From an uncultured Chitinophaga sp. (GTDB lineage Bacteria > Bacteroidota > Bacteroidia > UKL13-3): a stretch of 64,000 bases of DNA. Shown here in pieces: positions 3,610-54,476 of the stretch; position 1 is the first letter of the stretch; each line of letters opens with the position of its first letter. The DNA lies in contig CAYUDC010000001.1 in the NCBI GenBank assembly GCA_964443415.1, forward strand, positions 21,039-85,038. The letters are read 5' to 3'. The notes under the pieces were generated by a model. The model saw nothing but the letters and a program-made list of their open reading frames with translations, had not been told where the DNA came from and did not search any database. The position numbers and the translations under genes were made by a program.

Positions 3610-3684
3610 CCTTTGTGGGGTTAGACCTCCTTCACCTAAATATTAGCCTATTTTCCTGCCAAAATAGACTAATAGATAAGCACT

Positions 3685-7149: not shown

Positions 7150-7208
7150 ATCAGATTGAACAAATTTAGCTATAATTTAGATTAGATTATCTTAGGATAC
7201 TTTTTTAG

Positions 7209-8723: not shown

Positions 8724-8725
8724 AC

Positions 8726-9157
8726 ATGAACGTAAAAGTTATAAATTTATCTGATAATTCTTTGCCTGAGTACCAAACGCCCTCTGCTGCTGGCTTAGAT
8801 GTATGTGCCTTTTTAGCAGAGTCTGTTTTAATTAAACCAATGGAAAGGTTGCTTATTCCAACAGGTTTGTATTTAGAAATTCCAGATGGATATGAAGTTC
8901 AAATTAGGCCGCGTAGCGGATTAGCACTAAAACATGGAATTACTGTCTTAAACAGCCCTGGAACCATTGATGCTGATTATAGAGGCGAAGTGAAGGTATT
9001 GTTAATTAATTTAGGTTCTGAAACCTTTGAGATAAAGTCGGGGGAGCGGATAGCTCAAATGATTTTGGCTAAGCACGAGACACTTCAATGGCAGGCTGTT
9101 ACAGAACTAGCTAGCTCTAAAAGGGGTGCTGGAGGATATGGCAGTACGGGCAAATAA
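8726..9157 (+). CDS. dut: dUTP diphosphatase
   Basis: Trimeric dUTPase motifs: [35 protein letters not shown], and C-terminal GYGSTG. I chose the ATG at 8726 (MNVKV...) over the track start at 8678, which would overlap the flippase. Only 2 nt separate the flippase stop from this ATG. Confidence 0.92.
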
Positions 9158-9222
9158 TTAATCCCTATGAGGTTTTGAAATTTTAGTGCTTTATATTAGG
9201 TTGCGAAAAATCTAGATTTAAG

Positions 9223-10233: not shown

Positions 10234-10275
10234 TTTACCCAAGCTTATTGCGTTGTTACTGCATATCTAATAGCT

Positions 10276-11958: not shown

Positions 11959-11961
11959 TCT

Positions 11962-14008: not shown

Positions 14009-14076
14009 ATAGATTTTTTTCTTTTTCTTGCAACTTAATTACAAACTCCTTGTCTAATAAGTATCATTTAACCAAC

Positions 14077-33967: not shown

Positions 33968-34014
33968 ATAACAAAAAATAAGTTATTTTGCAACCCCACT
34001 TAAATCCAGTTTAT

Positions 34015-36801: not shown

Positions 36802-39800
36802 ATGAAAAAATATATACTTAATCTACGAAGCATGTTAGCTTTGGTCATTCTCCTAGTAGGTCTAGGTAATGACTTGCGCGCGCAGGTTTACCTGCTCGAA
36901 AATTTCGACAGCGCATTTGTGGGTACACCAGGAGCGCCTCCTGGATGGACTCAAACCCGTTTTGATTATTGGGGTGATGGCACTCCAACTGCAATTAATG
37001 TGGCTGGTCCAAAAGACTGGCAGAGAAACCGTTTAATTTCTTCTGGCTTTTGGTCTTCGCAGAGTTTTGGTACTATACCAAGCGCTGCTGTAACAGATTC
37101 AGGAGCTCTTTGGCTCGAAGATTACTATTTTGGAACACAAACCAATATGTTAAGCAGAAGGATTGAGTCGCCAGCTATTAATCTTTCAACAGCTACTTCG
37201 CCTTATTTGCGATTTAACATGTTTTTTGCTCAAACTGCCAATTACACGTATCCAATTATTGTAATGGCATCTAATGATAATGGTGCTACATGGAAATCTA
37301 TCATGCATGTTCAACCTAATGCAGATGTGGTTACTACTTCTACAACTGGCGCAGGTACAATGAATGCTGCTACACCTTGGCAAAAAATAACCATCCGTAT
37401 TCCGGATGCATATAAGGTACCTAATGCTAAGTTTGCCTTTTACAGAAACAATCCATATAGCTTTAACTCAAACCCTTTCATTGATAGTTTAACTATCGAA
37501 GAATTTACACCAACCACTATTACTTCTGCACAAAGTGGTAACTGGTCTGATCCATTAACTTGGGTTGGTGGAATTGTACCTAATGCTAATAATCACGTAG
37601 TAATTGATGCAAATCATACAGTTACTTCAAATGTGAATATTTCTCGTATGCAAAATTTAACCATCAGTGGTGGTGCATCGTTTTTATATTTTTCTTCTTC
37701 TTTAAATACAGTTTCTCAAATTTTTGGAAATTTAACCATCAACTCTACTGGAACATTTAGCCTTGGAACTACTGCTTCATCTACCATTAATAGATGGGTG
37801 TATATTGGTGGAAGTTTAACCAATAATGGCACCTTGAATACCGGTACTGGAACGGGAAGTGTTGTATACATGACAGGTGGGCAATTGAGCACCTTTACTA
37901 ATAATGGTACTATCTCAAACGGCTATATCTCTGGTATGTATTTTGCAAATTCAGGGGGTGTGGAGTTTAACGGTAGTATGACCAGTAACGTGGTAATTAG
38001 AAATTTAACTTTCCTTGTAGACGGTCCTGTAATTCCAAATGGTAAACTAACTTTAGGTATCACCGGAAACGTACATACAATTACACGCGGTAATAATACT
38101 GCGTTCTTTACCCAAAGACCTATTTATCCTCCTTTAGGTACCTCACTTCGTTCGGTAACTTATGGAGGTGGAACGAATGGTAACCCTACAATGGGTATTT
38201 TCTATAAGGACACTATTTTTACTGGATTTGAAACTGATACACTAGCTACTGGAGTTCAATTTATCAGAGGTACATTAACTGTTTTCACTCAGAATCATGT
38301 TAAATTAAGTGCTCCACTTCAAATTGGTGATACTGTTGGAAGAACAACGACACTTTCTGCTACCAATGCTGGTGGATTAACTACATTTAGTCGTGGTATC
38401 TTATTCACCGATGATGTAAATATCTTAACCGTTGGTCCAATTGGAAATGGTTCTTTAGGGGTTGACCCAAGTTTAAATAATTTAAATCCACCCACTACAC
38501 ACGGATCCTATATTGTTGGGCCAGTTAGATTTGTTAGACCATTATCAGGTACTTTAACCTCTACTTTAAGTGTTCCGTTAGGATACGGAAGTCAATACTT
38601 AGCGTTAAGTACACCAAATAATGCTAGACGTTATTTACAACTTACCGCAGGTGGAGGTTGGGCCGGACAGATTATCACTTTCCGCGCTCTAACAAACCCA
38701 TCTGGCGCGGTGAGTGCACCACAAACTTCTTTACTAACCAATCGTTTATACAGAATTGAGTTAGCGCCAGGTCAAAATTTGCCAGCAACCTCATTATTAA
38801 CCGCCATCACTAGAATAGAAGGTGGTAATAGCAATGCAGATGCTTTATTGGGAAACCAAGATCAATTATTCTTAATGCAAAGTACCAGTCCAACTGGACC
38901 TTGGGTGCCAAGAAATGTAGCGGCTGGTGCCGGTGCATTTGTTATTAATACATTATATACACGTCAAACAAGTGCATTATCACCTGGACCAATTAGTGGT
39001 AATGGTGAATATTTTGCATGGGCCTCTTCTGCACCATTAATGAACTTTCAGAATGGAGATGTAACCAGAGAGGTTGCCCCAGTTTCTATTGGTGCCCAAG
39101 ATATGCCAATGTTAAGAGTTAGGGTTAATGTTAACGGTACCATCCCAACTAGGGTAACTAACCTTGATTTTACGCCTGCTGGAACTTCTAACCTTGCAGC
39201 AATTTCATCAGCAAAGGTGTATTATACAGGTACCTCACCGGTATTCAATAATTCTACTCAGTTTGGCTCTACAGTTACCTCTGTAACTGGTGTTACTTCT
39301 GTTACAGGAAACCAAGTATTACAATCTGGCGATAACTATTTCTGGATTGCTTACAATGTTTCAGCTAGTGCAGTCTTGGGTGATAGTTTAAGTGCTAACC
39401 TAAACAGCATTACAGCAGTTGACACAGCAAGAACTTTAGTTACTACACCTGCTACAGGCTTTAGAATTGTAAGTGCTCCAATGACTTTTGTTTCTGCAAC
39501 AGCAGTTCAATTGAATGCAGCAAGAGTAGAGCGTGGCGAACAGGGAGCTGATATCATGCGCATTAATGTAAATATGTCGGCAACTGGTGCTCCGATTCCA
39601 TTGAATAGTTTGCGTTTAAACACCAATGGGTCAGGTGCCACTACCAACATCACACAAGCTCAAGTTTATTATACAGGTAACTCTACCACATTTAACAAAA
39701 ATCAATTAGTAGGAACATTTAATAGCCCAAGTGGAGCATTCATCATAAATGGAACCCAAAATCTATCTAATGGCGATAACTATTTTTGGGTAGCGTATTC

Positions 39801-42800
39801 TGTATCTGCTACAGCAATCTTAGATGATTCTGTTGATGTTGAGTGTGATTCGATTTCTATAAGTGGAGTAAACAGACCTGTAAGTCCAATAGCTCCAGCT
39901 GGAAATAGGCTCATCCGTGCGCCATATTGTAATAGCGCTGCAACTACTACTGGTGATGAGGAGATTTGGAATGTTACTTTTGGTTCAATTAACAATACCT
40001 CAAACTGTACAACCTTAGCCCCAGGGCCTGGTTCGGTGAATAGCATGTATTCAAATTATACCACTTCTATTGCACCTCCTAGTATTCCTGCTGGTTTGCC
40101 TATACCAATTAGTGTTAATGCTGCAAGTTGTGGTGGTAATTATCCTTCAACCTTAAGGGTATATATCGATTATAACCAAAACGGTGTTTTTGATTTACCT
40201 GGTGAATTAGCTTATTCTAATAATTCATTTACTTCTAGCACTGCAGGTACAACCATTTTAACAGGAAACATTACTGTTCCATGTAGTGCTTTACCTGGAA
40301 ACACAAGAATGAGGGTTGTATTAGATGAAACTTCTGGTGCTCCGGCTTGTGGTACTTATACTTGGGGAGAAACAGAAGATTACACCATTAATATTGTTGC
40401 AGGAGCTTCAACTTATACAGCTTCAAATGCTATTCAATTTACAGGTACAACTTCTGCCGGATCATCAGATGTTAGGGTATTGAGAGTGCCAATTAAGGTA
40501 TCTTCTTCACCTTGTAATCCTGGTGTTATCACACAATTAAGATTTAATACTGCTGGTTCTACCAGTGCTGCAGATATCGTTTCTGCTAAATTATATAAAA
40601 CTGGAAGCTCTAACATATTTAGTATTGCTAATCTAGTTGGTACTGTAGCCGCTCCAAGTGGTCAGTTTTCATTCACCGTAGCAGATACCGCTGTAAATGA
40701 TACCAACAATTATTGGTTAGCCTATGATGTAAGTGCTACTGCTACCGCATCAAATGTTTTAGATGCTAGATTTGATAGCGCCGAAGTATTTGGTGCTTGG
40801 TACACCCCAATTAATGGAAATCCTACAGGAAATTTAGTAATTACTGTTCCTATGGCTTATATAGGTTCAAGTGTTATTCATACAGACTTAGGAATGGTAG
40901 AAAGACCTTCTGTTAATAATAGAATGTTGCGTGCGATGGTAATCATGGGTTCTACTGGTGCACCAGTATCAGTTACTCAGTTTAGCTTAGATGCCAATGG
41001 CGGTGGTGATGACACCTCAAATATTGCTAACGTAAAAGTATTCTACACCGGAAGCAGCGCAAATTTTGCTTCAACCAACCAGTTTGGTTCAACTTTCGTT
41101 CAAACTACACCTACTGGTAATAAATATGGTGCCTTTAATATTAATGGTATCCTTAACCTGGCCAATGACACCAACTACTTCTGGGTAACTTATGATATTA
41201 AGTCTACCGCAATATTAGGTGACTCAGTTGACTTAGAAATGTCAGGCATTACCATTGCGGGTGTTAATAGAACTCCATCCACCACGGCTCCGGCGGGCAA
41301 TAGAAAAATTCGTGCTCAATATTGCGCCAGTGGTGCTACCTCAACTTTTGATGAGGAAATTTGGAATGTTACAGTTGGTTCGTTAAATAACACTTCTACT
41401 TGCGCTACCACAGCTCCAGGCCCTGGTTCTGTAAACAGCCAATACTCAAATTATTCTGGATTTGTTGCTGCTCCAAATTTGGCTGCAGGATTGCCAATTC
41501 CATTTAGCGTAAATGCAGCAAGTTGTAATGGTAATTACACTTCAATGTTGGGTATTTACATAGACTATAACCAAAATGGAATATTTGACTTGCCAGGTGA
41601 ACTTGCTTATGCTAGTGGTACATTTACCTCAAGTACAGCCGGAACACAAATAATTACTGGTAATATTACTGTACCATGTACTGCAATGCCTGGTATAACC
41701 AGAATGCGTGTGGTATTAAATGAAACTACCGGTGGTGTTGCACCATGTGGTACATTTGCTTGGGGTGAAACCGAAGATTATGATGTAAACATTGTATCTG
41801 GCGCTCCATCGTTCCGCAGTGTTAGTGTGAACCAAAATACAGGAACTACTGCTGCCTCAGCTACCGATGTTAGGATTTTAAGAATTCCTGTGGTTATGAC
41901 ATCATCGCCTTGTAACCCAGCTATTATAGATGGATTCTCTTTCAATACTGCTGGTTCTACTGCTGCTGCTGATATTGCAAATGCAAAATTATATGTAACA
42001 AGAAATTCTGGTGTATTTAACAATACCAACTTGCTTGGAACAGCAACTAGCCCTTCAGGCCAATTCACATTTACTGTGGCTGATACCTTAAATAATGATA
42101 CCAATTTCTATTGGTTAACCTATGACGTAAGTGCAACTGCTACCAATAGCAATGTGTTAGATGCTAGATTAGATAGTATCAACTTGTTAGGAAGCTGGCG
42201 TGTGCCTGCAAATGGAAACCCTGCTGGAAACGTAGTGATTGCCACTCCTATGACTTATTTAGGAAGTGCTGCTATACATCCAGAACAAGGTATCGTAGAA
42301 ACAGGAGCAGTTAATCAAAGAATGTTACGTGTAATGGTTAGAATGAGTTCTATTGGCGCTCCTGTTGCATTGACCCAATTTAACTTAAATGCAAATGGAG
42401 GTGGAGATGATACTTCAAACATTGCCAATGTAAAAGTATTTGCAACAGGCAATAGCCCAGTATTCTCAGCCGCTAACCAGTTTGGTACCACTTTCGTTCA
42501 AACTACACCTACCGGTAATAAGTGGGGTGCATTTAACATCAATGGTACCATTAACTTAAATAATGATACCAACTACTTCTGGGTAACTTATAATATTAAA
42601 TCTACTGCCATCATTGGCGACTCTGTAGATGCAGAAATTACAGGTTTAACCATTGCAGGTGTTTCTCAAACTCCTACCAATACTGCTCCAGCGGGCAGCA
42701 GAAGAATTAGAGGTCCTTATTGCGCTAGTGCCGCTCAGTTTGCTGGAGATGGAGAAATTTGGAATGTAACAGTTGGTTCGTTAAATAACACTTCTAACTG

Positions 42801-45800
42801 TACTGTGGCTGCAACAGGCCCTGGTTCTACTTTAAGTTTATATTCTAACTATACTCAATCTATCAATGCACCAAATTTAGTGGCTGGTGTTTCGATACCG
42901 TTCTCTGTCCATACTTCAACTTGTGGTGGTAATTACAATGGTGTATTGGGTATTTGGATAGATTTGAACCAAGACGGTGACTTTACTGATGCGGGTGAAA
43001 CCGTTCATATGACTCCAACTTTCTTATACGGGACAACCGTATTCCGCACAGGTAATTTTGTGATTCCTTGTACTGCCACTCCTGGTACTACAGTGATGCG
43101 TGTGATTTTAAATGAGACTACTGCTTCTCCAATTTCGCCTTGTGGTTCTTATTTCTATGGAGAAACAGAGGATTATATCGTAAACATTGTTAACGCTGCT
43201 CCTGTATTTAATGCAGTTTCAGTAATACAACAAACTGGTACAACAAGCGCTGGTGCTACAGATGTTCCTGTATTACGTGTTCCTATCAGAGTAACTTCTT
43301 CTGCTTGTACTCCTGGAACAGTAAATGAATTTAGATTTAACACGGCTGGTACAACTACTGCTGCTAACATTGTTACGGCTAAACTTTACAAAACAGGTAA
43401 TACAGGTGTATTCTCAAACACTAACCTGGTAGCTAGTGTTACTTCACCAAGTGGCGCATTTAGCTTTACTGTAACAGATACCTTAATTAATGATACCAAT
43501 AACTATTGGTTAGCCTACGATGTTGCTACAACGTCTGCAAACAACAATACGTTAGATGCAACTTTTGACAGTGCCAATGTTTATGGTAATTGGGTAGTTC
43601 CTGCTGTGAGCAATCCTACTGGTAATGTGGTTATCTCTACTCCAATGACCTTTGTAGGAAGCGATGTAAGCCACCCAGATGCGGGTATGGTTGAAACTGG
43701 TTCTGTAAATAACAGAATGTTAAGAATTAGGGTTCGCATGAGTTCTACTGGTGCACCTGTTTCATTAACTCAGTTAAACTTAAACACAAATGGTGGAGGT
43801 AATGATACTTCTAACATTAATAACTTGAAAGTATTCTATACTGGAACGAGTGCAAATTTTGCCACTACCAACCAGTATGGATCAACTTTTGTGCAAACTA
43901 CACCAACAGGTGCAAGTTGGGGAGCCTTTAACATTAATGGCTTGGTTTCACTTGCCAACGATACCAATTATTTCTGGGTTACTTACGACATCAAAGGAAC
44001 TGCCATCGTAGGCGATTCGGTTGATGCAGAATGTACAGGAATGACTATTGGCGGTGTTTCTCAAACACCTTCGAATACAGCGCCTGCTGGATCAAGAAAA
44101 ATTAGAGTGCCTTATTGTACAAGTGCAGCCCAATTTGCGGGTGATGGCGAAATCCTAAATGTAACTGTTGGTACTTTAAATAACACCTCTAATTGTACTA
44201 CTGTTGCTCCTGGTGCAGGTTCAGCTTTGAGTTTATATTCTAACTTTACTTCTTCGGTTACCGCACCAATTATGAATGCAGGTGATTTAGTTACATACGA
44301 TATTCATACAGCAACTTGTAATGGAAACTACAATGGTGTTATGGGTATTTGGATAGACTTTAACCAAGATGGTGACTTTACGGATGCTGGTGAAACTGTT
44401 GTGATGACTCAATCATTCCTTTATGGTAATGGTGTGTATCAAACAGGTGCCTTCTATATTCCATTGAATGCTACTACTGGTAGAACTAGAATGCGTGTCA
44501 TCTTAAATGAAACTACAGCTTCTCCAATTTCTCCTTGCGGTACCTACTTCTATGGAGAGACAGAAGACTATACCATTGAGATTTTACCTGCACCAAATAC
44601 AACCTACCTATGGAACCAAACAAGTGGTGGTAGCTTAATTTTACCTACCAACTGGACTCCATCAAGGTTAAAAGCCAACCTTTCAGATAAGTTAATTATC
44701 AATACTGGTAATACAGGTGCATTTACAGGTGCTGGTAGCCAAATTGTTCGTGCCATTGAATTAGGTGCAAATACGGTTGCTAACGTTGCTGGCAATGCTG
44801 CCATTGTTGTAGTTACCGATTCATTGGTATTTGGTAACAACGCTAGAATTGTTACTAACTCAAATACATTGGTATTGGGTAGAGATACTTCAAGTGTAGG
44901 TGCATTGCAAGTAGGAACTGCTGCTGGTATAGCTGGTAATTTCACTCGTTGGTTTAATAGTACTTTGAATCCAATTAGTTTCCCATTAATTACAAGTGCT
45001 GGATTAAGTAGAGTAATGGAAGTTAACTATACCACTGCTCCTACCACAATCGGTTCGTTGACAGCTTCATTTGTGCCAACAGCGCCAGGTAATAATGGCT
45101 TACCACTTTATGATAGTACTGCCTTCTTTACTATTAATAGAGCCGGTATCGATGGATACTGGTCATTGTTGCCAAGCAATGGTACTGCAGCTGGTACTTA
45201 TAATGTAAGTTTAAATGCGACAGGTTTTACAGGTGTATCTAACTACTTACAATTGGTTGCTATTAGAAGAAATACTGGTACTTCACCTTGGACATCTAAT
45301 GGTGTTCATGTAACTGCAACTGGTTCTAATGCGGCTCCTATTGTAAATCGTAACAATGTTAATCAATATGGTGATTTTGGTATCGGTGGAGATACTGCTG
45401 TTAATCCGTTACCAGTTGAAATGTTATCATTTACTGCAAAAGCGATCAATGGAGATGCATACTTAAATTGGTCAACTAGCATGGAGATCAATAATAAGGG
45501 CTTCTTCGTAGAAAAATCTATCGATGGTGTTAACTTTAAAGATATCAACTTTATAGCAGGACATGGAAATTCTAAAGCTGTTAGAAGCTATCATTTAGAA
45601 GATCAAAATGCCTTTGCATTAACTTCAACTGTTTATTACAGATTAAGACAAGTTGATTTTGATGGCACAACTAGCTATTCAAAAGTTGTGAGTCTTTCAG
45701 AAAATGACCTAGTATCGGATGCGGTTACCATGTTCCCTAATCCGTTCTCTGAATCAATTGGAATTAGCTTTGTTTCATCGGTGAGCGGTGAGGCGGTTGT

Positions 45801-45969
45801 TGAGGTAATTGATATCCAAGGTAGATTAATTGCTAATAGCACATTAACCATTCAACAAGGTGCTCAGTACATTCCTTTAAACAATGCAGATAAATTAAAC
45901 TCTGGAGTTTATATGGTTCGTGTGAACTTTAATGGTATCACACAAACATTCAAAATTCAAAAGATGTAA
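36802..45969 (+). CDS. Giant (3055 aa) T9SS-secreted cell-surface repeat protein with four GEVED-like Cys-rich modules
   Basis: Signal peptide ALVILLVGLGNDLRAQ. Choice-of-anchor-J-like N-terminus (ENFDSAFVGTPGAPPGWT). A 4x ~1.4 kb tandem super-repeat, each unit ending in W/YGETEDY. A pre-CTD module shared with the downstream gene. T9SS CTD (MFPNPFSESIGISF...GVYMVRVNFNGITQTFKIQKM). Confidence 0.85.
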   Translation: MKKYILNLRSMLALVILLVGLGNDLRAQVYLLENFDSAFVGTPGAPPGWTQTRFDYWGDGTPTAINVAGPKDWQRNRLISSGFWSSQSFGTIPSAAVTDSGALWLEDYYFGTQTNMLSRRIESPAINLSTATSPYLRFNMFFAQTANYTYPIIVMASNDNGATWKSIMHVQPNADVVTTSTTGAGTMNAATPWQKITIRIPDAYKVPNAKFAFYRNNPYSFNSNPFIDSLTIEEFTPTTITSAQSGNWSDPLTWVGGIVPNANNHVVIDANHTVTSNVNISRMQNLTISGGASFLYFSSSLNTVSQIFGNLTINSTGTFSLGTTASSTINRWVYIGGSLTNNGTLNTGTGTGSVVYMTGGQLSTFTNNGTISNGYISGMYFANSGGVEFNGSMTSNVVIRNLTFLVDGPVIPNGKLTLGITGNVHTITRGNNTAFFTQRPIYPPLGTSLRSVTYGGGTNGNPTMGIFYKDTIFTGFETDTLATGVQFIRGTLTVFTQNHVKLSAPLQIGDTVGRTTTLSATNAGGLTTFSRGILFTDDVNILTVGPIGNGSLGVDPSLNNLNPPTTHGSYIVGPVRFVRPLSGTLTSTLSVPLGYGSQYLALSTPNNARRYLQLTAGGGWAGQIITFRALTNPSGAVSAPQTSLLTNRLYRIELAPGQNLPATSLLTAITRIEGGNSNADALLGNQDQLFLMQSTSPTGPWVPRNVAAGAGAFVINTLYTRQTSALSPGPISGNGEYFAWASSAPLMNFQNGDVTREVAPVSIGAQDMPMLRVRVNVNGTIPTRVTNLDFTPAGTSNLAAISSAKVYYTGTSPVFNNSTQFGSTVTSVTGVTSVTGNQVLQSGDNYFWIAYNVSASAVLGDSLSANLNSITAVDTARTLVTTPATGFRIVSAPMTFVSATAVQLNAARVERGEQGADIMRINVNMSATGAPIPLNSLRLNTNGSGATTNITQAQVYYTGNSTTFNKNQLVGTFNSPSGAFIINGTQNLSNGDNYFWVAYSVSATAILDDSVDVECDSISISGVNRPVSPIAPAGNRLIRAPYCNSAATTTGDEEIWNVTFGSINNTSNCTTLAPGPGSVNSMYSNYTTSIAPPSIPAGLPIPISVNAASCGGNYPSTLRVYIDYNQNGVFDLPGELAYSNNSFTSSTAGTTILTGNITVPCSALPGNTRMRVVLDETSGAPACGTYTWGETEDYTINIVAGASTYTASNAIQFTGTTSAGSSDVRVLRVPIKVSSSPCNPGVITQLRFNTAGSTSAADIVSAKLYKTGSSNIFSIANLVGTVAAPSGQFSFTVADTAVNDTNNYWLAYDVSATATASNVLDARFDSAEVFGAWYTPINGNPTGNLVITVPMAYIGSSVIHTDLGMVERPSVNNRMLRAMVIMGSTGAPVSVTQFSLDANGGGDDTSNIANVKVFYTGSSANFASTNQFGSTFVQTTPTGNKYGAFNINGILNLANDTNYFWVTYDIKSTAILGDSVDLEMSGITIAGVNRTPSTTAPAGNRKIRAQYCASGATSTFDEEIWNVTVGSLNNTSTCATTAPGPGSVNSQYSNYSGFVAAPNLAAGLPIPFSVNAASCNGNYTSMLGIYIDYNQNGIFDLPGELAYASGTFTSSTAGTQIITGNITVPCTAMPGITRMRVVLNETTGGVAPCGTFAWGETEDYDVNIVSGAPSFRSVSVNQNTGTTAASATDVRILRIPVVMTSSPCNPAIIDGFSFNTAGSTAAADIANAKLYVTRNSGVFNNTNLLGTATSPSGQFTFTVADTLNNDTNFYWLTYDVSATATNSNVLDARLDSINLLGSWRVPANGNPAGNVVIATPMTYLGSAAIHPEQGIVETGAVNQRMLRVMVRMSSIGAPVALTQFNLNANGGGDDTSNIANVKVFATGNSPVFSAANQFGTTFVQTTPTGNKWGAFNINGTINLNNDTNYFWVTYNIKSTAIIGDSVDAEITGLTIAGVSQTPTNTAPAGSRRIRGPYCASAAQFAGDGEIWNVTVGSLNNTSNCTVAATGPGSTLSLYSNYTQSINAPNLVAGVSIPFSVHTSTCGGNYNGVLGIWIDLNQDGDFTDAGETVHMTPTFLYGTTVFRTGNFVIPCTATPGTTVMRVILNETTASPISPCGSYFYGETEDYIVNIVNAAPVFNAVSVIQQTGTTSAGATDVPVLRVPIRVTSSACTPGTVNEFRFNTAGTTTAANIVTAKLYKTGNTGVFSNTNLVASVTSPSGAFSFTVTDTLINDTNNYWLAYDVATTSANNNTLDATFDSANVYGNWVVPAVSNPTGNVVISTPMTFVGSDVSHPDAGMVETGSVNNRMLRIRVRMSSTGAPVSLTQLNLNTNGGGNDTSNINNLKVFYTGTSANFATTNQYGSTFVQTTPTGASWGAFNINGLVSLANDTNYFWVTYDIKGTAIVGDSVDAECTGMTIGGVSQTPSNTAPAGSRKIRVPYCTSAAQFAGDGEILNVTVGTLNNTSNCTTVAPGAGSALSLYSNFTSSVTAPIMNAGDLVTYDIHTATCNGNYNGVMGIWIDFNQDGDFTDAGETVVMTQSFLYGNGVYQTGAFYIPLNATTGRTRMRVILNETTASPISPCGTYFYGETEDYTIEILPAPNTTYLWNQTSGGSLILPTNWTPSRLKANLSDKLIINTGNTGAFTGAGSQIVRAIELGANTVANVAGNAAIVVVTDSLVFGNNARIVTNSNTLVLGRDTSSVGALQVGTAAGIAGNFTRWFNSTLNPISFPLITSAGLSRVMEVNYTTAPTTIGSLTASFVPTAPGNNGLPLYDSTAFFTINRAGIDGYWSLLPSNGTAAGTYNVSLNATGFTGVSNYLQLVAIRRNTGTSPWTSNGVHVTATGSNAAPIVNRNNVNQYGDFGIGGDTAVNPLPVEMLSFTAKAINGDAYLNWSTSMEINNKGFFVEKSIDGVNFKDINFIAGHGNSKAVRSYHLEDQNAFALTSTVYYRLRQVDFDGTTSYSKVVSLSENDLVSDAVTMFPNPFSESIGISFVSSVSGEAVVEVIDIQGRLIANSTLTIQQGAQYIPLNNADKLNSGVYMVRVNFNGITQTFKIQKM
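38990..44590 (+). repeat. Four tandem ~1.40 kb (about 466 aa) in-frame super-repeats inside the 3055-aa gene
   Basis: The GETEDY codons recur at 40366, 41764, 43159 and 44554 (spacings 1398, 1395, 1395 nt). Each unit holds two ~150-aa subrepeats (...NRMLRxMVxMxSTGAPV...YYTG...NYFWV.Y) plus one ~150-aa six-Cys module (CxSAA...EIWNVTVGSLNNTSNC...SCxGNY...PC...PCGT(Y/F)xxGETEDY). The copies have diverged, roughly 75-95% identical over conserved stretches. Confidence 0.8.
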
Positions 45970-45996
45970 TTTTTCAAGCTTTTATTTAGATAGAAA

Positions 45997-46026
45997 GGCG
46001 GCTGATGATTCAGCCGCCTTTTTTTT
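45997..46026 (+). terminator. Rho-independent terminator downstream of the 3055-aa gene
   Basis: Stem GGCGGCTGA, loop TGAT, stem TCAGCCGCC. A run of 8 T follows, about 28 nt after the stop codon. Confidence 0.7.
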
Positions 46027-46166
46027 GTTTTTTGCAAATTTTTAATCCACACATTATCAACTATTAATCATTACATTAATTTCCTCTTAAAAAAATTGAC
46101 AATAGATTATTGCGTGAATGTTTACAAATATTTTAAATTACGCATCAAACCAAATCCTAATAATAT

Positions 46167-49100
46167 ATGTTATACATCTCCTCTAAACGATTTCGAGAAT
46201 TTTGGGTCAAACCAATATTTTCGATTGTTGCCATTTTACTAATGGCATCTGGGCTTTATGCTCAAACAAACATAGCCCCTTTGGCTACTGCTTCCGCGTC
46301 TTCCTGTATGACCGGACCGTGTAGTGCATTTAATGATTTAAACTATGGTACTTGTGGGACGCAATTGGTGTGGATTTCTACATCTGGCCCTCCTGCCGGT
46401 ACAGAATGGTTAGAGTTTACCTGGCCAACTACGCAAGTGTTTGACAAAATTACCATTCACCATGCCCAAACCACTGGCCGCTTTTTGGCGGGTGGAACTA
46501 TTCAAGTTTGGAATGGTACTTCCTACGTTAATCACCACACTTTTTCTGGATTGAACCAAGCGAATTGTGTGAATGATGTAAGTTTCTTACCGGTAGCCTC
46601 AACAAGACTACGTATTACTGCTTTTGTAATGGGTACAGGACAGAACTCTAACCCAAACTTTCGTGAAATTGAAGTTTGGAGAGGTTCTCTTTCAGGCAAT
46701 GATGTTGGTATAGCAAGTATTGATTCAGTTGGAACCGTTTGTTCAACAACTGCAATTCCTGTCTATGCCACTATTCAAAATTTTGGTACCAACCAAGTTA
46801 CCTCTGCTAATGTTTTATGGAGTGTAAATGGTGCGTTGCAATCAGTTATCCCTTTTACTGGCACTTTGGATACTGCTGGTGGAGCAGGTTCCAACAAAGC
46901 TACAGTTCTACTTGGCACTTATGGTTTCTCGCCTACCAATTCTGTTATTAAAGCTTGGACTAGTCAACCTAATAGTACAGCTGATACCATAAGAGTTAAT
47001 GATACTGCTTCAGTAACTAAATCAATTGCACTTGCTTCTGGTACTTATACTATTGGTGGAACTGCTCCAGACTTTGTATCGTTTACTGCTGCTAGAAATG
47101 CTTTATATGCTCGCGGTATTTGTGGCCCTGTTACTTTTATAGTAGCCAATGGTACCTACAATGAGCAAGTAGATTTTACTGGTCATATTTCTGGCGCTTC
47201 TGATGTTAATACCATTACTTTTAGAGGTACTAGCAGAGCAGGTACTATTCTTAATTTTGCTTCTACAAATACGGCTCAAAGGCATACGCTTCTGTTTGCC
47301 TCTAATGCGCGTTTTATCACCTTTAGAGACATGACCATTCGTGGTAATGGTAATTTTGCTGGTGATTTTGCCTTTACTTTAATTATTAACAGTGGTGCCA
47401 GAAGCATTAGAGTGGCCAATTGTGATATCTTAGTTGCAGGTGCTAACTCATTATCTGGTACAACAAATTATATCCCTGTGTTACTTGGTGGTACTTCTTC
47501 TTCTTATTCTTCTGGTAGCAGAGTGGATAGCGTAGAAATTGATACTTGTTTAATTAGCCGTGGGTATTTTGGTGTAGTGAATTATGGTGTTTCTGGTAAC
47601 CTAGGTTTGAACGTAAAGTTTAGAGGATGTTTATTTAAAGAAAACTATTACTATGGATATTACGGTGTTCAAAATGGTAACTTAACTTTAGAGAATAACG
47701 ATTTCCAATTACAAACTGCTACCACTGGTATTACTCCAATTTATGTTTCTACTGCTACTGCACCTACCAATTTTCATCACAGAATTGTAGGTAATAAAAT
47801 GAGAGAAATAGGGTCTTATGCTATGGCACTCTTTACAGTTACAAATCCATCAACTGGTAAAGGTTTAATTGCAAACAATGCCATTGGTGGTGCGCAAATT
47901 TCTACAACTGGTTATGGAATTTATATGAGTGGCTGTAGCAACTTTATGATGTTGCATAACTCTGTAAATTTAAATATTGCAGGATCTACCAATGCAATTT
48001 ATGCAGGTATATATATTACCAGTGGTTCTGGAAATAGTATCATTAATAATAACCTTGCTAGAACTGCTTCTGGTGCTGGTATGCCTATGTATTTAGTGAC
48101 AAGCGCTGTAAGTGATACTTGCGATTACAATAACTATTTTAAGGTAGATACTGTGAGCGGTTTAATTTATAAAGGAGCTACCTATATGCCTGCTACCTTT
48201 AGGGGCACAATGGCTAAGGATAGCTTCTCTTTAAATAACCCTCCTGGATTCTTAAGTGCTACCAATTTAAATATCAATGTGCCTTGTAATAAAGGTATGG
48301 CTTTACCTGTGGTACCAACTGATATCAATGGTTTAGCTCGTTCTATTACTGCTCCAAATATGGGTGCTTACGAAATGTTAGCGCTTAATAATAACATTGG
48401 TATTGAAAGAATTCTTGCACCAACGCCAACTACTTTCACCATTGGAAGTAATGATGTTTGGGCTTTAATTAGAAATACTGGTATTAATACAGTAAGTAGT
48501 TTTGATGTTTCATACACCAATAATGGCGGTACTCCAGTGACACAATCGGTTACTGCTACATTGGCCGCTTGTGATACCATTAGTGTATTGTTTACAGGTA
48601 CCAATCAAGTAACTTTAGGTTCAAGCAATAAATTAAAAGTTTATACCAGCGGACCTAATGCAAGTTTAGATTCATTCCCTGCTAATGACACCTTGGTGGC
48701 TGATTTATATGCTCCGTTAAGTGGTAACTATACTATCGGTGGCAGCACTGCAAATTTTGCCAACTTTACTGCCGCTGTTAATGCCCTTAAAGGTGCTGGT
48801 ATTGCTGGGCATGTTACTTTTACCGTTAATCCTGGTACTTATAATGAATTTGTGAACTTAGATGGAACAATTTTAGGTTTACATGATACTGCAAGGGTAT
48901 TGTTCAGTGGTGTGGATAAAAACACTGTGATAATAGAAGCTAACAGAGGTTCTGCACCAGTGGTGGGTATTTTTGGACATCGTTATATCACCTTTAGGGA
49001 TATGACCATTAGAAATACTTCTCCTTCAGGTACAGGTTTTGCCATTGTAGGAAATACTACCAACAATGCTGGTACTGGTTGTGGAATCATTAATTGTATT

Positions 49101-52100
49101 GTTGATATGCCAAATGTAACCACAGCTACAGCTTATGGAATATTGGCAACAGGTACTGCCTCTGGTTATGGAATTGGAGCTATGCGCGCTGATTCAATTA
49201 CCATTGATTCAAATGTGGTAAACAAATCTTTCTATGCTATAACTGTTTATGGTGCTACCAATGCATTGTATAACCGTTTTATTAGAATTAGAAATAATAC
49301 CTGTAACAATATTTACTATATGGGTGCATATGTTGCTTATAACTACAATGCCATTGATTTTATAGGTAACAAGTTTACCATGGATCCTACCTATGGTTAT
49401 TATGGGGTTTATTATTATGCTAACCAAAATGCGAGTGCAACTGTGCCACATAGATTCCACGGTAATACTGTTATTAATCACGGTGGTTATGGCGCCTTCT
49501 TGTATTTCCCAACCACTAACAGTGCAAACTCGGCTATCACAGAAGTGTATAATAACATGATTGTATCTGGCCCAACCTATAACTTTGTGTATGGTATCTA
49601 TGTGCAAGATCAATCTTCTTCTAGATCAAGAATTATTCATAATACCTCTGTAAATAGATATCCTACAGGTACGGTGAGTTATGCTGCTATCGGAACAACT
49701 GGTTCTACTCAGGTGGTGGTTAAAAATAATATTTGTGTAAATTTAGCTGGTTCGGCTGCTCCTGCCTACTTTGCTACCAACCCTGCTGCTGGTAATGTTA
49801 ACCATAATATTTATTGGAATACTGCTGGTACTGCATTGGTTTTTAGAAACGGAACGTATTGGAACGCCTCTAACTTTAAAACTGCTACAAATGGTGGTGA
49901 CTCTTCTCACAACATTAACCCAGATTTAGTGAGTGCCACAGACTTACATACTACTAGTGCTTGTTTGCCTAAAGGTGCTGATTTCTCAGCATTTTTAACC
50001 ACAGACATTGATGGCGATGTAAGAACCATTCCAAGTATGATTGGTGCTGATGAGGTGGTGGGTATGAGCAACGACCTTGAAGTTGTTTCTATTCTTGCTC
50101 CTTCTATTCCTGTAAGTTTAGGTGCACAAGACCTAAAAGTGTTGGTTAAAAATAGAGGTACTAATACCGTTACTAGCTTTAACGTTGCTTATAGTTTAAA
50201 TAATGGTACTCCAGTGGTATTAGCCTACAGTGGGTCTGGTTTGTCTTCTTGTCAATCTGATACCATTACCTTTACGGGTACTAACCAAATTACCATTGGA
50301 ACTGGTGTGAACAATGTAAAAGTTTATACTTATGCTCCAAATGCCAGTGCAGATAGCAATCCTATTAATGATACTTTAGGAGCCTCATTGGCAGCGCCGC
50401 TTTCTGGTAACTATATTGTGGGTGCGGCTCCTTCTGACTTCCCTTCTTTAACAGCTGCATTGTTGGCTGCCAAAACAAGAGGAATCGCAGGTAGAACTAC
50501 CTTCTTAATGAAATCAGGTGTATATACTGGTAACTATGCTGTTGAGCCAATGCCTGGAACTTCTGCTACCAACACAGTAAATATTGAATCATTAACTGGT
50601 AACCGTGACGATGTAAGATTTGAATTCTCAAATGATGCTTCAAATCTTCAGGTATTTAACATCTCTGCAAGTTTTGTAAACTTTAGAAATGTAACCATTC
50701 GTCAAACCAATGGTAACCTAACCTCTACCAATACTATTGTGAGATTTAATGGCGCACCTACCAACGACTCTTTAGTAAATTGTGTGGTTTGGGGACCTAT
50801 TTTTGGAGTAGATGGAAATAGCACAGCTAGTTATTCTCTGTATGCTACAGGTATCAATACCAATAGATTGATTTTTGAAAACAACTATTTCAAAGGTTCT
50901 TTCTATGGAGCTTATTTCTTTGGAAATAATGCAAACTACTCTGTTAAAAATACTGAATTTATTGGTAATACTTTTGACAGTGTGACCTATGGTGCTTTAT
51001 ATTACTTATACTATACTACTGGTACAAAAGTTATCAATAATATCTTTAATCATAGGGTAATTGGTGGTACTTACACCACTGGCTACCAGTATTGGTATTA
51101 TAATGACTCAGGTTATGTATGTACTAATAACAAAGTTCAAACCTTTGGTGGTAAGAGTTTATATTGGTACAACTATTATAGTAGAAATGCTGCTTCAAAC
51201 CCTTCTATCATTGCCAACAATGATGTAAATGGTGCTTCAGCCTTTATTTATTGGGCATTGTTTGGTAGTGTTACCAATAACCAAAACTTCTACCATAATA
51301 CAGTGCATTCTGGTTCAAATTATACTTACTTTAATGCAACTGGAAATAGCAACGTAAAAGTGTTTAACAACATTTTTGCTGCTTCGGGTACTTATTCATT
51401 GTATTGGTCAGGTGCACCTGCAGGTATTGCTCAAATTAATACCGATTACAACTTGTATTTTACAACAGGTTCAACTACTCCAATTTATGCAACAGCTGCA
51501 AGAACTCTGGCAGCCTTTAAAGGAGCCTACCCTACGTATGATAGAAACTCGGTGCAAAATAGAGCTCCGTTCATGAGCAACGCTAACCTTATGCCAAATG
51601 CAAATGATACAAATGTATGGTTAATCAATGGCAGAGGTGTTCATAACACTATATCTCCTATAGATTTTGTTGGTGTAACCAGACCAGCTTCTGTATTAAA
51701 TGGTGCGCCAGATTTAGGTGCCTACGAAGTAACACCTTCTATTAGCACTTTGGCTCCTTTAGCAACTGTTGTTCCTGCCATTCCAGTAGCGGGTGGTACT
51801 CAACATTTCTTAGTAGGTCAAGACTCTGTAGCTAAAATCACTTGGGATCCATTTACTTCTTTACCAACTAATGTTTCATTGAGATATTATACTGGCGAAC
51901 AGCCAAATACTCAAGGTGCTACTGGTAAAGCCATCAATGCTTATTATGATGTGAAGTTAACAGGCTCTGGCTTGTTGTATAATTTAGACTTGCATTATAA
52001 AAATACCCTACGTGGAAATATTGCTGCTCAAGGCGATTTAAGAATGGCTAACTATCCTGTGGGTTCTTGGAATTACTTAGGTGCAAGTGTAGTGGATAGT

Positions 52101-54476
52101 ACCAGATTAATGGTAAGTACCACGGGTATTTCTGATACAAGTGCCGTTTGGACTTTAACAGATGCTACCGATCCACTAACTACTTTCTTAAATATTACTG
52201 CTCAGCCTCAAAGCACTACTAAATGTACTGGAGATTCTGCTGTATTCACAGTAGCTGCAATTGGTACTGGTTTATCTTACCAATGGCAAGTGAATACTGG
52301 TACTGGATTTACCAATATTACAGGTGCTACTTCAACTACTTTGGTAGTGAATAGTCTTACTACTGCATTTAACAACTACAAATACCGTTGTGCTATTTCT
52401 AACTTAACAGGTACTGCTCAGTCTAACGAAGCTACCTTAACTATTGGCTCTAGCACTAACATTACCACCCAACCAATCAATGCTGCTGGTTGTCAAGGAG
52501 ACAATGCAGTGTTTACTTTAGGTGCTACAGGTAGTAACTTGGCTTTTGAATGGCAAGAAAACACTGGTTCTGGTTTTGCTACCATTACTGGTGCTACAGG
52601 TTCAACCCTTATCAGAGCAAATATCCAAGCTGCTATGACTGGTTATACTTATAGATCTATTGTTACTGGTGCTTGCGGTGTGAGAACTTCAGATACAGTA
52701 TCTTTAACAGTAAGTGGTCCAATCTCTATTACCACTCAACCAGCTCCAACTACTGTAAACACTTGTGCAGGTTCAACTGTCAATATTACCATGGTTTCTA
52801 CTGGTGCCACTACTTATCAATGGCAAATTGATGTGGGTAGTGGTTATGCAAACATTCCTAATGGTAATGGTGCAAACCTTAGCATTGCCAATGTTCCGGC
52901 TAGTTACAATAATGGTACTATCCGTTGTGTGCTAACCAATGCATGTAATACTACTTTTAGTAATACCGTTTCTATTACCGTTCAAACTCCTGGTTTATGG
53001 AGTGGTGTAACAAGCACTGCTTGGACAACTGCTAGTAACTGGGGATGTAGCGCAGTACCAACTGCTACTACTGATGTGGTAATTCCTGGTTCTGCTGTAA
53101 ATATGCCTGCTGCAAGTACTGCAGTTAACATGCGTTCATTAACAGTTGATCCTTCTGCTACCATTACTTTAAGTGGTGCTGGTGCGCTTAACATTTACGG
53201 AAACCTTACCAATAATGGTACAATTTCTGGTGCAAATGCATGGGTTAACTTTATGGGAACTGCTGCACAAACCATTAATGGTGGTACTTATAATAGAGTT
53301 TCTTTAGACAATGCTGCTGGTTTAACTACTACTGCTGCTTTAACCATTAATGATACCTTACAATTAGTAAGTGGTAAAGTAACTTTAGGTTCAAACAATC
53401 TTACCATTGGATCTTCAGCTAGATTGCTAGGTAACTCTGCTGCTAACTATATTGTAACCAATGGAACTGGAAGTTTAGTGATGAATAACATCGGTACTTC
53501 TGGTAGAACTGGTGCTATTGTATTCCCAGTGGGTACAGCAAGCAATTACAATCCAGCTACTTTAAACAATACAGGTGTTGCAGATAACTTTGCAGCTAGA
53601 GTAATAACAGGTTCATATCCTGCCTTCACTGGAAGCACACCTTCGGGTGCTGCCTACACCAGCAACGTAGTAGATGCTAACTGGATTATCGATGAAGCTA
53701 TTCAAGGTGGTTCAAACTTGGTGGTGAGCTTACAATGGAATGCTTCGCAAGAGCTTCCAAGCTTTACTAGAGCTTCTTCATACATTGCTCGTTACTTAGC
53801 AAATGGTTGGAACAATGCTGCTGCTTCTGCTGCAACAGGTGCCAATCCTTATGCGAGCACTGTAAGTGGTATCACTGTTTTAGCTCCAATGGGTGTAGGT
53901 TCAAACGGAACCCTTCCTGTAAGCTGGCTATCATTTACTGCTAATGCCAATGGTATGGATGCGGTATTAAATTGGGCAACTGCAACAGAGATAAATAACA
54001 AAGGATTTGAAGTAGAGCGTTCATTAGATGGCTCAATCTTTAAAACCATTGGTTTTGTTGAAGGTAACATTAACAGTGGTTCTGTTAAGAACTACAGATT
54101 TACTGATAACAGAGCGCTTGAAATGTTTGCTGGTGCTAGCGTTTACTATCGCTTAAAACAAGTTGATTTAGATGGAAACTATTCTTATAGCAACATCGCC
54201 CTATTAAATACTGAAGAAGGTTCTGATATTAGCTTATATCCTAATCCATTTAACAGTACTACGGGTGTGTATGTAAATGCTACCGAGGATGCCAATGTTA
54301 CCATCGAAGTGAAAGATTTAATGGGTAGAAGCATCGCTTTAACTACTGCTTCAGTTGTTAAAGGTGGTCAATACCTAACTATCGAAGCACTTTCAACTGT
54401 GGCTGATGGTATGTATTTAGTTCAAGTTGAATTAAATGGTGAACTTAAATCTTTCAGAGTTCAAAAGACTAAGTAA
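46167..54476 (+). CDS. Giant (2769 aa) T9SS-secreted protein: discoidin-like domain, 3x (CARDB-like + right-handed beta-helix), 3x Ig-like, T9SS CTD
   Basis: Signal peptide. The N-terminal F5/8-type-C-like domain begins NIAPLATASASS, continues ...EWLEF...FDKITIHHAQ..., and ends REIEVWRG. Three ~1.69 kb super-repeats start at 46698, 48400 and 50070. Their beta-helix rungs show N-N-x-(F/I/V) ladders (NNNLART, NNMIVSG, NNICVN, NNIFA). Three Ig-like repeats follow (ITxQPxxxxxCxGxxAVFTVxAxGxxLxYQWQ). The pre-CTD module is shared with the upstream gene. The CTD ends LYPNPFNSTTGVYVN...GMYLVQVELNGELKSFRVQKTK. Confidence 0.85.
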   Translation: MLYISSKRFREFWVKPIFSIVAILLMASGLYAQTNIAPLATASASSCMTGPCSAFNDLNYGTCGTQLVWISTSGPPAGTEWLEFTWPTTQVFDKITIHHAQTTGRFLAGGTIQVWNGTSYVNHHTFSGLNQANCVNDVSFLPVASTRLRITAFVMGTGQNSNPNFREIEVWRGSLSGNDVGIASIDSVGTVCSTTAIPVYATIQNFGTNQVTSANVLWSVNGALQSVIPFTGTLDTAGGAGSNKATVLLGTYGFSPTNSVIKAWTSQPNSTADTIRVNDTASVTKSIALASGTYTIGGTAPDFVSFTAARNALYARGICGPVTFIVANGTYNEQVDFTGHISGASDVNTITFRGTSRAGTILNFASTNTAQRHTLLFASNARFITFRDMTIRGNGNFAGDFAFTLIINSGARSIRVANCDILVAGANSLSGTTNYIPVLLGGTSSSYSSGSRVDSVEIDTCLISRGYFGVVNYGVSGNLGLNVKFRGCLFKENYYYGYYGVQNGNLTLENNDFQLQTATTGITPIYVSTATAPTNFHHRIVGNKMREIGSYAMALFTVTNPSTGKGLIANNAIGGAQISTTGYGIYMSGCSNFMMLHNSVNLNIAGSTNAIYAGIYITSGSGNSIINNNLARTASGAGMPMYLVTSAVSDTCDYNNYFKVDTVSGLIYKGATYMPATFRGTMAKDSFSLNNPPGFLSATNLNINVPCNKGMALPVVPTDINGLARSITAPNMGAYEMLALNNNIGIERILAPTPTTFTIGSNDVWALIRNTGINTVSSFDVSYTNNGGTPVTQSVTATLAACDTISVLFTGTNQVTLGSSNKLKVYTSGPNASLDSFPANDTLVADLYAPLSGNYTIGGSTANFANFTAAVNALKGAGIAGHVTFTVNPGTYNEFVNLDGTILGLHDTARVLFSGVDKNTVIIEANRGSAPVVGIFGHRYITFRDMTIRNTSPSGTGFAIVGNTTNNAGTGCGIINCIVDMPNVTTATAYGILATGTASGYGIGAMRADSITIDSNVVNKSFYAITVYGATNALYNRFIRIRNNTCNNIYYMGAYVAYNYNAIDFIGNKFTMDPTYGYYGVYYYANQNASATVPHRFHGNTVINHGGYGAFLYFPTTNSANSAITEVYNNMIVSGPTYNFVYGIYVQDQSSSRSRIIHNTSVNRYPTGTVSYAAIGTTGSTQVVVKNNICVNLAGSAAPAYFATNPAAGNVNHNIYWNTAGTALVFRNGTYWNASNFKTATNGGDSSHNINPDLVSATDLHTTSACLPKGADFSAFLTTDIDGDVRTIPSMIGADEVVGMSNDLEVVSILAPSIPVSLGAQDLKVLVKNRGTNTVTSFNVAYSLNNGTPVVLAYSGSGLSSCQSDTITFTGTNQITIGTGVNNVKVYTYAPNASADSNPINDTLGASLAAPLSGNYIVGAAPSDFPSLTAALLAAKTRGIAGRTTFLMKSGVYTGNYAVEPMPGTSATNTVNIESLTGNRDDVRFEFSNDASNLQVFNISASFVNFRNVTIRQTNGNLTSTNTIVRFNGAPTNDSLVNCVVWGPIFGVDGNSTASYSLYATGINTNRLIFENNYFKGSFYGAYFFGNNANYSVKNTEFIGNTFDSVTYGALYYLYYTTGTKVINNIFNHRVIGGTYTTGYQYWYYNDSGYVCTNNKVQTFGGKSLYWYNYYSRNAASNPSIIANNDVNGASAFIYWALFGSVTNNQNFYHNTVHSGSNYTYFNATGNSNVKVFNNIFAASGTYSLYWSGAPAGIAQINTDYNLYFTTGSTTPIYATAARTLAAFKGAYPTYDRNSVQNRAPFMSNANLMPNANDTNVWLINGRGVHNTISPIDFVGVTRPASVLNGAPDLGAYEVTPSISTLAPLATVVPAIPVAGGTQHFLVGQDSVAKITWDPFTSLPTNVSLRYYTGEQPNTQGATGKAINAYYDVKLTGSGLLYNLDLHYKNTLRGNIAAQGDLRMANYPVGSWNYLGASVVDSTRLMVSTTGISDTSAVWTLTDATDPLTTFLNITAQPQSTTKCTGDSAVFTVAAIGTGLSYQWQVNTGTGFTNITGATSTTLVVNSLTTAFNNYKYRCAISNLTGTAQSNEATLTIGSSTNITTQPINAAGCQGDNAVFTLGATGSNLAFEWQENTGSGFATITGATGSTLIRANIQAAMTGYTYRSIVTGACGVRTSDTVSLTVSGPISITTQPAPTTVNTCAGSTVNITMVSTGATTYQWQIDVGSGYANIPNGNGANLSIANVPASYNNGTIRCVLTNACNTTFSNTVSITVQTPGLWSGVTSTAWTTASNWGCSAVPTATTDVVIPGSAVNMPAASTAVNMRSLTVDPSATITLSGAGALNIYGNLTNNGTISGANAWVNFMGTAAQTINGGTYNRVSLDNAAGLTTTAALTINDTLQLVSGKVTLGSNNLTIGSSARLLGNSAANYIVTNGTGSLVMNNIGTSGRTGAIVFPVGTASNYNPATLNNTGVADNFAARVITGSYPAFTGSTPSGAAYTSNVVDANWIIDEAIQGGSNLVVSLQWNASQELPSFTRASSYIARYLANGWNNAAASAATGANPYASTVSGITVLAPMGVGSNGTLPVSWLSFTANANGMDAVLNWATATEINNKGFEVERSLDGSIFKTIGFVEGNINSGSVKNYRFTDNRALEMFAGASVYYRLKQVDLDGNYSYSNIALLNTEEGSDISLYPNPFNSTTGVYVNATEDANVTIEVKDLMGRSIALTTASVVKGGQYLTIEALSTVADGMYLVQVELNGELKSFRVQKTK
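46698..51740 (+). repeat. Three tandem ~1.69 kb super-repeats (CARDB-like Ig domain + parallel beta-helix) inside the 2769-aa gene
   Basis: Unit starts are NDVGIASIDSVG (46698), NNIGIERILAPT (48400) and NDLEVVSILAPS (50070). Each is followed by ...PLSGNY(T/I)(I/V)GG...FxxxTAAxxAL...GIAG.VTF..., then beta-helix rungs. Confidence 0.7.
52190..52990 (+). repeat. Three tandem Ig-like repeats (~85 aa each)
   Basis: The repeats begin ITAQPQSTTKCTGDSAVFTVAAIGTGLSYQWQ, ITTQPINAAGCQGDNAVFTLGATGSNLAFEWQ and ITTQPAPTTVNTCAGSTVNITMVSTGATTYQWQ. Each ends in a (Y/I)RC...N motif. Confidence 0.7.

Follow-up and report, generated by a model that had tools for sequence, protein, structure and literature searches.

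Does the giant protein encoded at this locus act on polysaccharides, or does it hold on to them? The question is raised by a 64,000-nucleotide (nt) stretch of contig CAYUDC010000001.1 from an uncultured Chitinophaga sp. (assembly GCA_964443415.1, positions 21,039 to 85,038 of the forward strand), the whole of which we call the window. At 46167..54476 on its forward (+) strand lies a single open reading frame (ORF) with an ATG start, encoding 2769 amino acids (aa); an earlier note, made by reading the sequence, had reported a protein of this length at these positions and had offered two functions for it—a glycan-binding adhesin or a very large surface polysaccharide-active enzyme. Position and length are exact; NCBI lists a protein of identical sequence, and 2 near-identical cluster members come from JGI and ENA. 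The individual folds of this protein are all known, and it joins the giant modular surface proteins that are type IX secretion system (T9SS) cargo. Our functional interpretation leans to an adhesin: that the protein is a long modular surface fibre, exported by the T9SS and binding glycans or surfaces without catalysis, strikes us as about an even call, with the remainder divided among several readings that we take up below.

The two ends of the protein suggest how it would leave the cell. Read off the translation, aa 1-32 (46167..46262, +) form a predicted Sec signal peptide with a basic n-region (K7, R8, R10, K15), a hydrophobic core (I17-L30) and an LYA/Q cleavage context, in which the Gln after the predicted cleavage site agrees with the 'Q-rule' of Bacteroidota. 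At the other end, aa 2690-2769 together with the stop codon (54234..54476, +) make up a type A T9SS C-terminal sorting domain (CTD), matched over aa 2690-2765 by both TIGR04183 (29.3 bits, cut-off 23) and PF18962 (29.6 bits, cut-off 27). In a PDB sequence search, the CTD was the only part for which family profiles gave matches, to the solved CTDs 8glk_D, 8glj_D, gingipain and mirolase; 8glk and 8glj are substrates bound to the T9SS translocon of Flavobacterium johnsoniae. The signal peptide, a CTD above both cut-offs, further CTD-bearing genes in the window (four, with the target) and the origin from a Bacteroidota metagenome-assembled genome (MAG) all point to predicted export as a type A cargo. 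Charge is low overall, with 135 acidic and 132 basic residues among the 2769, and Thr, Asn, Gly and Ser are abundant.

Most of what lies between the two signals is repetitive, in two separate systems. The repeats came to light when the protein was cut into 200-aa segments and each was compared by BLASTP with the whole, the uncut protein returning only its match to itself. Three super-repeats of ~560 aa follow one another—aa 178-741 (46698..48389, +; 1692 nt), aa 742-1301 (48390..50069, +; 1680 nt) and aa 1302-1860 (50070..51746, +; 1677 nt)—with pairwise identities of 25-46% and E-values down to 5e-42; depending on the aligned stretch, the second is 31-47% identical to the first and 30-35% identical to the third. 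Farther on, three repeats with a period of 89 aa occupy aa 2008-2275 (52188..52991, +), at 32-42% identity and E-values down to 3e-34. Both similarities are far above chance expectation, and the super-repeats are the three units of 1.69 kb that had been described before. At the DNA level, the repeats can barely be aligned, the best match being 69% over 131 nt; because this similarity is negligible, the super-repeats are ancient rather than an artefact of assembly.

Each super-repeat opens with a CARDB-like sandwich of ~105 aa (~178-285 in the first), which is followed by a right-handed parallel beta-helix of ~450 aa (~286-741 in the first). The sequence match of the sandwich is weak in this protein, with PF07705 (CARDB) scores of 14.2, 14.2 and 18.9 bits for the three copies against a cut-off of 22.7, yet the hallmark PN..D....ND[TS] is conserved, many homologues carry PF07705, and the AlphaFold2 (AF2) model predicts a beta-sandwich here, so that the earlier assignment of a CARDB-like Ig domain to each unit is upheld. 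The assignment of a beta-helix also stands: Pfam Beta_helix (PF13229) matches unit 1 at 30.5 bits (cut-off 25.9), units 2 and 3 are homologous to it and share its architecture, and AF2 model 1, covering aa 30-741 with a mean pLDDT (predicted local distance difference test) of 78.9, folds unit 1 into a long continuous ladder of short strands. Foldseek places this helix closest to a pectin methylesterase (2ntb), a phage depolymerase (7vul), a GH87 enzyme (6k0v) and AlgE6 (5lw3), at E-values of 1e-5 to 3e-4, and in BFVD its fold matches include phage tailspike and pectate-lyase-superfamily proteins. Against NCBIfam, single segments of the protein gave sub-threshold para_beta_helix and choice_anch_Q matches only.

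We aligned 424 full-length homologous units and took as conserved the columns that reached 70%, which proved to be an Asn ladder, a core of Gly, Tyr and aliphatic residues, the CARDB hallmark and a C-terminal cap. The ladder, whose presence had been noticed in the raw sequence, consists of N461, N488, N511, N543, N570/571, N598, N628/629 and N655, spaced 23-32 residues apart and conserved at 77-100%. The most conserved feature other than Asn is the cap motif D..G..R…DxGAxE at the unit ends (aa 719-736, 1280-1296 and 1833-1854; 48321-48374, 50004-50054 and 51663-51728, all +), in which D719, R725 and G733 are invariant (100%), E736 stands at 95%, and G722, D731 and A734 are conserved as well. 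In super-repeat 3, the cap gives a sub-threshold match to the choice-of-anchor-Q family NF041518 (E = 0.037). The cap region (aa 676-741) is also the sole low-confidence part of AF2 model 1, with pLDDT <50, which may reflect the absence from the model of the next CARDB domain, against which it would pack; the motif may serve as an interface between modules. Also recurrent is D-[ST]-[AILVMT], the sequon for O-glycosylation in Bacteroidota, of which the protein has 19 copies against 8.6 +/- 2.7 in shuffled sequences. Three of them sit at the ends of the CARDB domains (aa 279-281, 841-843 and 1402-1404; 47001-47009, 48687-48695 and 50370-50378, all +), the other 16 being elsewhere; the CARDB-end copy is retained in 352 of the 424 units, which may mean that glycosylation at this site is conserved or may simply reflect the CARDB hallmark.

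Catalytic beta-helices would be expected under the second function of the earlier note, and we looked for their signatures at the level of residues, families and gene context. In the helix body, no column of the 424-unit alignment reached 70% for Asp plus Glu, for Lys plus Arg or for His, so that no catalytic Asp/Lys/Arg constellation of the kind sought is conserved across the family. No segment of the protein matched pectate lyases (PL1, PL3, PL9), GH28, CE8, GH87 or alginate lyases and epimerases in Pfam or NCBIfam at E <= 5; the profile of the helix family found no solved relative, beta-helix enzymes included, in a PDB sequence search, and phmmer with the full protein against PDB returned the Ig region only. 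Nor do the neighbours in the 64-kb window include SusC/D genes or glycoside hydrolases, leaving the ORF outside any polysaccharide utilization locus (PUL) or other context of carbohydrate-active enzymes (CAZymes). On these three grounds—no conserved acid or base in the helix, no catalytic family and no such neighbourhood—the proposal of a very large polysaccharide-active enzyme goes unsupported and a non-catalytic shaft is favoured. Compared with the pectin-lyase-fold enzymes and tailspike depolymerases themselves (CE8 2ntb, GH87 6k0v, Klebsiella phage P560 7vul, AlgE6 5lw3), the units share the right-handed parallel beta-helix with its Asn ladder but differ in sequence (10-14% identity), in having no match at the family level and in the absence of conserved catalytic residues.

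The domain in front of the units is the candidate for binding. The N-terminal domain (aa 33-175; 46263..46691, +) is a jelly-roll of the galactose-binding-domain-like kind, resembling CBM32, F5/8-type-C and DUF7402 domains. Its Pfam scores fall slightly short, at 26.6 bits for PF24135 (DUF7402; cut-off 27) and 19.9 bits for PF00754 (F5_F8_type_C; E = 8.5e-4, gathering score 28.2), while two orthologues (P0004 and P0008) do carry PF24135. The model of this domain (pLDDT ~85) superposes on CBM32, chitosan-binding and lectinolysin modules (2v72, 4zxe, 4zy9, 2j1a, 3lei) with target template-modelling (TM) scores of 0.68-0.78 and root-mean-square deviations (rmsd) of 2.9-3.7 A, the best being 0.78 to 2v72, 0.76 to 4zxe and 0.75 to 4zy9 by Foldseek. 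With the CBM32 module of C. perfringens NanJ (2v72) and the Paenibacillus chitosan-binding module (4zxe), it has in common a beta-sandwich jelly-roll of ~145 residues at an rmsd of ~3 A; identity is only 17-23%, so that the likeness is one of fold. To that extent, the F5/8-type-C-like domain proposed for the N-terminus is confirmed, and AF2 yields both of the folds in question, jelly-roll and beta-helix. Inside larger homologues, the same lectin-like domain recurs, mostly directly upstream of runs of units, and this arrangement, together with the modelled lectin fold of the N-terminus, argues for an adhesin.

On the C-terminal side of the units, we found two modules missing from the earlier description, as well as the Ig repeats that it contained. 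The first is a beta-sandwich of 147 aa (aa 1861-2007; 51747..52187, +), whose strands AF2 models at pLDDT ~90; without a match in Pfam or NCBIfam, it is nonetheless conserved, being present in 42 of 122 retrieved homologues and always after the last unit. The Ig array that follows it comprises three tandem Ig-superfamily domains with matches to Ig_3 (34.9 bits, cut-off 30) and PKD_6 (26.7 bits, cut-off 25), Cys pairs at 2020/2075, 2109/2170 and 2200/2254, and the pattern Cys…(Y/E)(Q/W)W…Cys, with YQW or EWQ inside each pair. Its sequence matches the tail protein 9c2d_S of PDB (phmmer, E = 3.7e-15), and its fold matches arrays of contactin, Robo and titin as well as the neck of GhpA (9flp) by Foldseek. 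Three Ig-like repeats had indeed been recognised, and these hold; their placement directly before the CTD does not, since a second new module of 414 aa (aa 2276-2689; 52992..54233, +) intervenes. In AF2 model 2 (aa 1861-2769, mean pLDDT 88.3), this pre-CTD module, mostly at pLDDT 85-97, is a small solenoid (~2276-2430) followed by two beta-sandwiches (~2437-2580 and ~2585-2680). It has no match in Pfam or NCBIfam and none in PDB, whether searched alone (E <= 0.1) or by profile. At E <= 1e-3 it nevertheless has 864 homologues, many of which are proteins of 455-690 aa consisting essentially of module and CTD, with an annotation that goes no further than T9SS type A sorting-domain protein; such stand-alone forms occur in Fulvivirga, Aureispira, Hymenobacter and many MAGs. 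Taken by itself, the module constitutes a widespread family.

The unit, too, is widespread. Searching 1.84 billion cluster representatives with unit 2 retrieved 3164 proteins at E <= 1e-3, a number that falls to 795 at E <= 1e-30, with up to 15 matched stretches per protein and proteins of up to 7814 aa. With a profile built from the three units, almost every one of the 120 best full-length homologues proved to contain complete copies, 2-7 in tandem. Because complete units recur in tandem in giant proteins (2-15 copies), we regard the pair of CARDB domain and helix, ~555-560 aa long, as a stereotyped building block. It is shared by giant proteins of Bacteroidota and KSB1 (such as P0017 of Bacteroidetes bacterium B1(2017) and P0031 of candidate division KSB1), many of which also resemble the target in their lectin-like N-terminus, in the sandwich after the repeats and in the CTD. 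The Ig domains and the 414-aa module are more restricted, occurring together with the units only in the closest orthologues (P0002-P0010, 41-85% identity), whereas the more distant three-unit proteins of ~2200 aa lack both. A 3255-aa relative (P0011) fuses the lectin-like domain and three units with GEVED and BNR_assoc_N domains, which are also found in the gene upstream of our target. Relatives are annotated as 'right-handed parallel beta-helix repeat-containing protein' or 'T9SS type A sorting domain-containing protein', and in the literature on T9SS, beta-helix and CARDB proteins, giant adhesins and GhpA, we found no paper on this family.

Comparison with the orthologues also dates the repeats. 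In two of them (P0005 and P0010), each unit of the window protein is closest to the unit at the same position, with 41-66% identity against 25-33% to the other units. Units 2 and 3 of the ~2200-aa proteins P0012, P0017 and P0024 follow this pattern as well, although unit 1 of these proteins is slightly closer to unit 2 of the window protein. This positional orthology implies that the triplication is older than these lineages and that each copy has been maintained. Negligible DNA identity and positional correspondence in proteins that are only ~40% identical rule out a recent tandem duplication or an assembly artefact.

How such a protein might work can be outlined from its parts. The Sec signal peptide would direct it to the periplasm, where it would fold and the disulfides of its Ig and lectin-like domains could form; the type A CTD would then be recognised by the T9SS translocon, and the chain would pass to the outside. 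In Porphyromonas, it is established that type A cargo loses its CTD and is attached by the C-terminus thus created; by analogy with such cargo, the protein here would shed its CTD and be tied to the outer membrane by its newly exposed end. In that orientation, the 414-aa module and the three Ig domains would be a cell-proximal stalk, the three rigid CARDB and beta-helix modules a shaft, and the CBM32-like domain the distal tip, with an extended length that we roughly estimate at ~60-70 nm. Such an arrangement is what one would expect of an adhesin extending toward a surface that carries glycans. The variable number of modules, 2-15 between homologues, is more typical of repeats that act as spacers or raise avidity than of enzymes. 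Precedent comes from GhpA and SprB, giant T9SS cargo with Ig repeats that are adhesive appendages (bioRxiv 10.1101/2024.01.29.577165). Of the two functions originally suggested, the glycan-binding adhesin is plausible, with the binding of glycans itself a prediction.

Several observations weigh against an adhesive, non-catalytic fibre. Among solved structures, those closest to the helix in fold belong for the most part to enzymes (pectin methylesterase, phage depolymerase, GH87, AlgE6), and each unit is conserved among orthologues in a position-specific way. The three-unit subfamily, moreover, preserves some charged residues: unit 1 keeps D454/S455/D459, H538 and H597, and unit 2 keeps D1009/S1010/D1014 and R1037. 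These could be unit-specific binding or active sites. The lectin assignment of the N-terminal domain derives from its modelled fold, with Pfam scores just under the cut-offs. Finally, many type A CTD cargos of other Bacteroidota are released enzymes, and retention at the surface is not guaranteed.

A rival reading is a multi-catalytic polysaccharide-active enzyme, in which each helix would act as a depolymerase, a lyase, an esterase or an epimerase from a new family, the three units would have three specificities, and the CBM32-like domain would do the targeting. The predicted pectin-lyase fold with its enzyme neighbours in Foldseek, a CBM32-like module such as is typically attached to CAZymes, a positional orthology that speaks for separate selection on each unit, and the subfamily-conserved Asp and His of units 1 and 2 are all in line with this. 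We nevertheless think it unlikely, given that no acidic or basic residue of the helix body is conserved over the family, that no sequence match to catalytic beta-helix families was found in the searches above, that copy number varies so widely, and that the locus has none of the surroundings of a PUL. D454 and D459 lie five residues apart, flanking an inward-facing Ile and a ladder Asn, a position that suits the capping of a turn. As a catalytic pair, residues of the D454/D459 type were set aside, being variable in the wider family and placed around the ladder turn.

A bolder reading is speculative and in our judgement also improbable. The 555-aa unit and its invariant cap might be a self-contained 'bead', not described so far, of a distinct class of T9SS surface fibre (2-15 beads, up to ~7800 aa), each positionally conserved bead having its own glycan specificity, or a new catalysis that dispenses with the classical active sites of beta-helices; the protein of the window would then be a lectin-tipped capture or processing fibre with three specificities.

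Doubtful to a greater degree is a structural coat or matrix, in which the protein would form a protective or self-associating, aggregation-promoting layer, as beta-helical passengers of autotransporters, Ag43 among them, do, without a specific glycan ligand. Its combination of beta-helix and Ig modules, the very low charge of a chain rich in Thr, Asn, Gly and Ser, the enrichment of the O-glycosylation sequon and the paralogous giant gene that adjoins the orthologue at one related locus (L001, described below) would all suit such a layer. The conservation of a dedicated lectin-like tip, N-terminally as well as in front of arrays of units, instead points to a specific ligand.

An appendage for gliding or for the capture of prey or host, of the type of GhpA (the grappling hook of Aureispira) or SprB (the gliding adhesin of F. 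johnsoniae), is very improbable: the target is likewise T9SS cargo of giant size, and its Ig array resembles the GhpA neck in structure, but it shows no sequence similarity outside the Ig domains, its CTD fits the type A model, and no porP/sprF/porE-like partner gene lies downstream of it. GhpA has 52 Ig domains, and its anchoring is attributed to PorP/PorE homologues whose genes lie downstream (bioRxiv 10.1101/2024.01.29.577165). In both GhpA and SprB, Ig-like repeats dominate by the dozen, whereas the protein here has three Ig domains and three beta-helix modules.

The preferred reading, a lectin-tipped adhesive fibre, bears on a class of proteins of some weight. Giant T9SS cargo takes up a large share of coding capacity in environmental Bacteroidota and probably decides what cells stick to, be it algae, particles or other bacteria; to our knowledge, only a handful of such cargo proteins (SprB, RemA, GhpA) have been studied. 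The target offers a clean and complete example of a widespread, unstudied architecture, in which beta-helix beads, variable in number, stand between a lectin-like tip and a pedestal bearing the CTD, and it brings out two conserved modules that Pfam does not cover, the sandwich behind the last repeat and the 414 aa that precede the CTD. Its practical value lies in annotation and in the choice of constructs, no new mechanism following from it by itself; the strictness of the 555-aa bead with its invariant cap, these two modules and the sequon enrichment are of mild interest.

The genes around the target show further T9SS cargo. The ORF is preceded by a strong predicted intrinsic terminator of the upstream giant gene (45992..46033, +; 14-bp stem, 7 GC pairs, long T-run), one of 2 sites in a scan for which shuffled sequences gave 0.3, and this prediction marks the target ORF as a separate transcription unit. 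Two cargo genes lie upstream, making three in a row. The first of the three (33988-36549, +; 853 aa) encodes a protein with an Endonuclease I domain, a choice-of-anchor-D domain, weak F5/8-type-C regions and a CTD, by its domains a secreted or surface nuclease. The second (36802-45969, +; 3055 aa) has four GEVED and five BNR_assoc_N domains, weak matches to G8 and reelin subrepeats, and a CTD; as a paralogue of the target it is ruled out, the CTD being all that the two have in common, with neither the unit nor the lectin-like domain nor the pre-CTD module present. The fourth CTD-bearing gene of the window (13957-14877, +) overlaps an M23 peptidase gene at the latter's end and encodes 306 aa with a CTD match of 55 bits and no further recognisable domain. 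No gene for a T9SS component is found within the 64 kb, and two ORFs in it, of 497 aa (23469-24962, +) and 374 aa (3685-4809, -), have no Pfam match at E <= 1e-5. Downstream of the target follow housekeeping genes, for a methyltransferase, a DUF2461 protein, a chorismate-binding enzyme, a thioesterase, two-component proteins and a GlmS-like enzyme.

Orthologues of 61-85% identity occur in three pond or lake Bacteroidetes MAGs (L001-L003), and one of these loci shows how the neighbourhood varies. In L001, whose orthologue is 81% identical, the upstream neighbour (275-13126, +) is not a GEVED protein but a paralogous, unit-containing giant protein of 4283 aa, equal in length to a homologue with four complete units (P0078). 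The slot for the giant gene upstream thus varies, whereas downstream the genes are syntenic.

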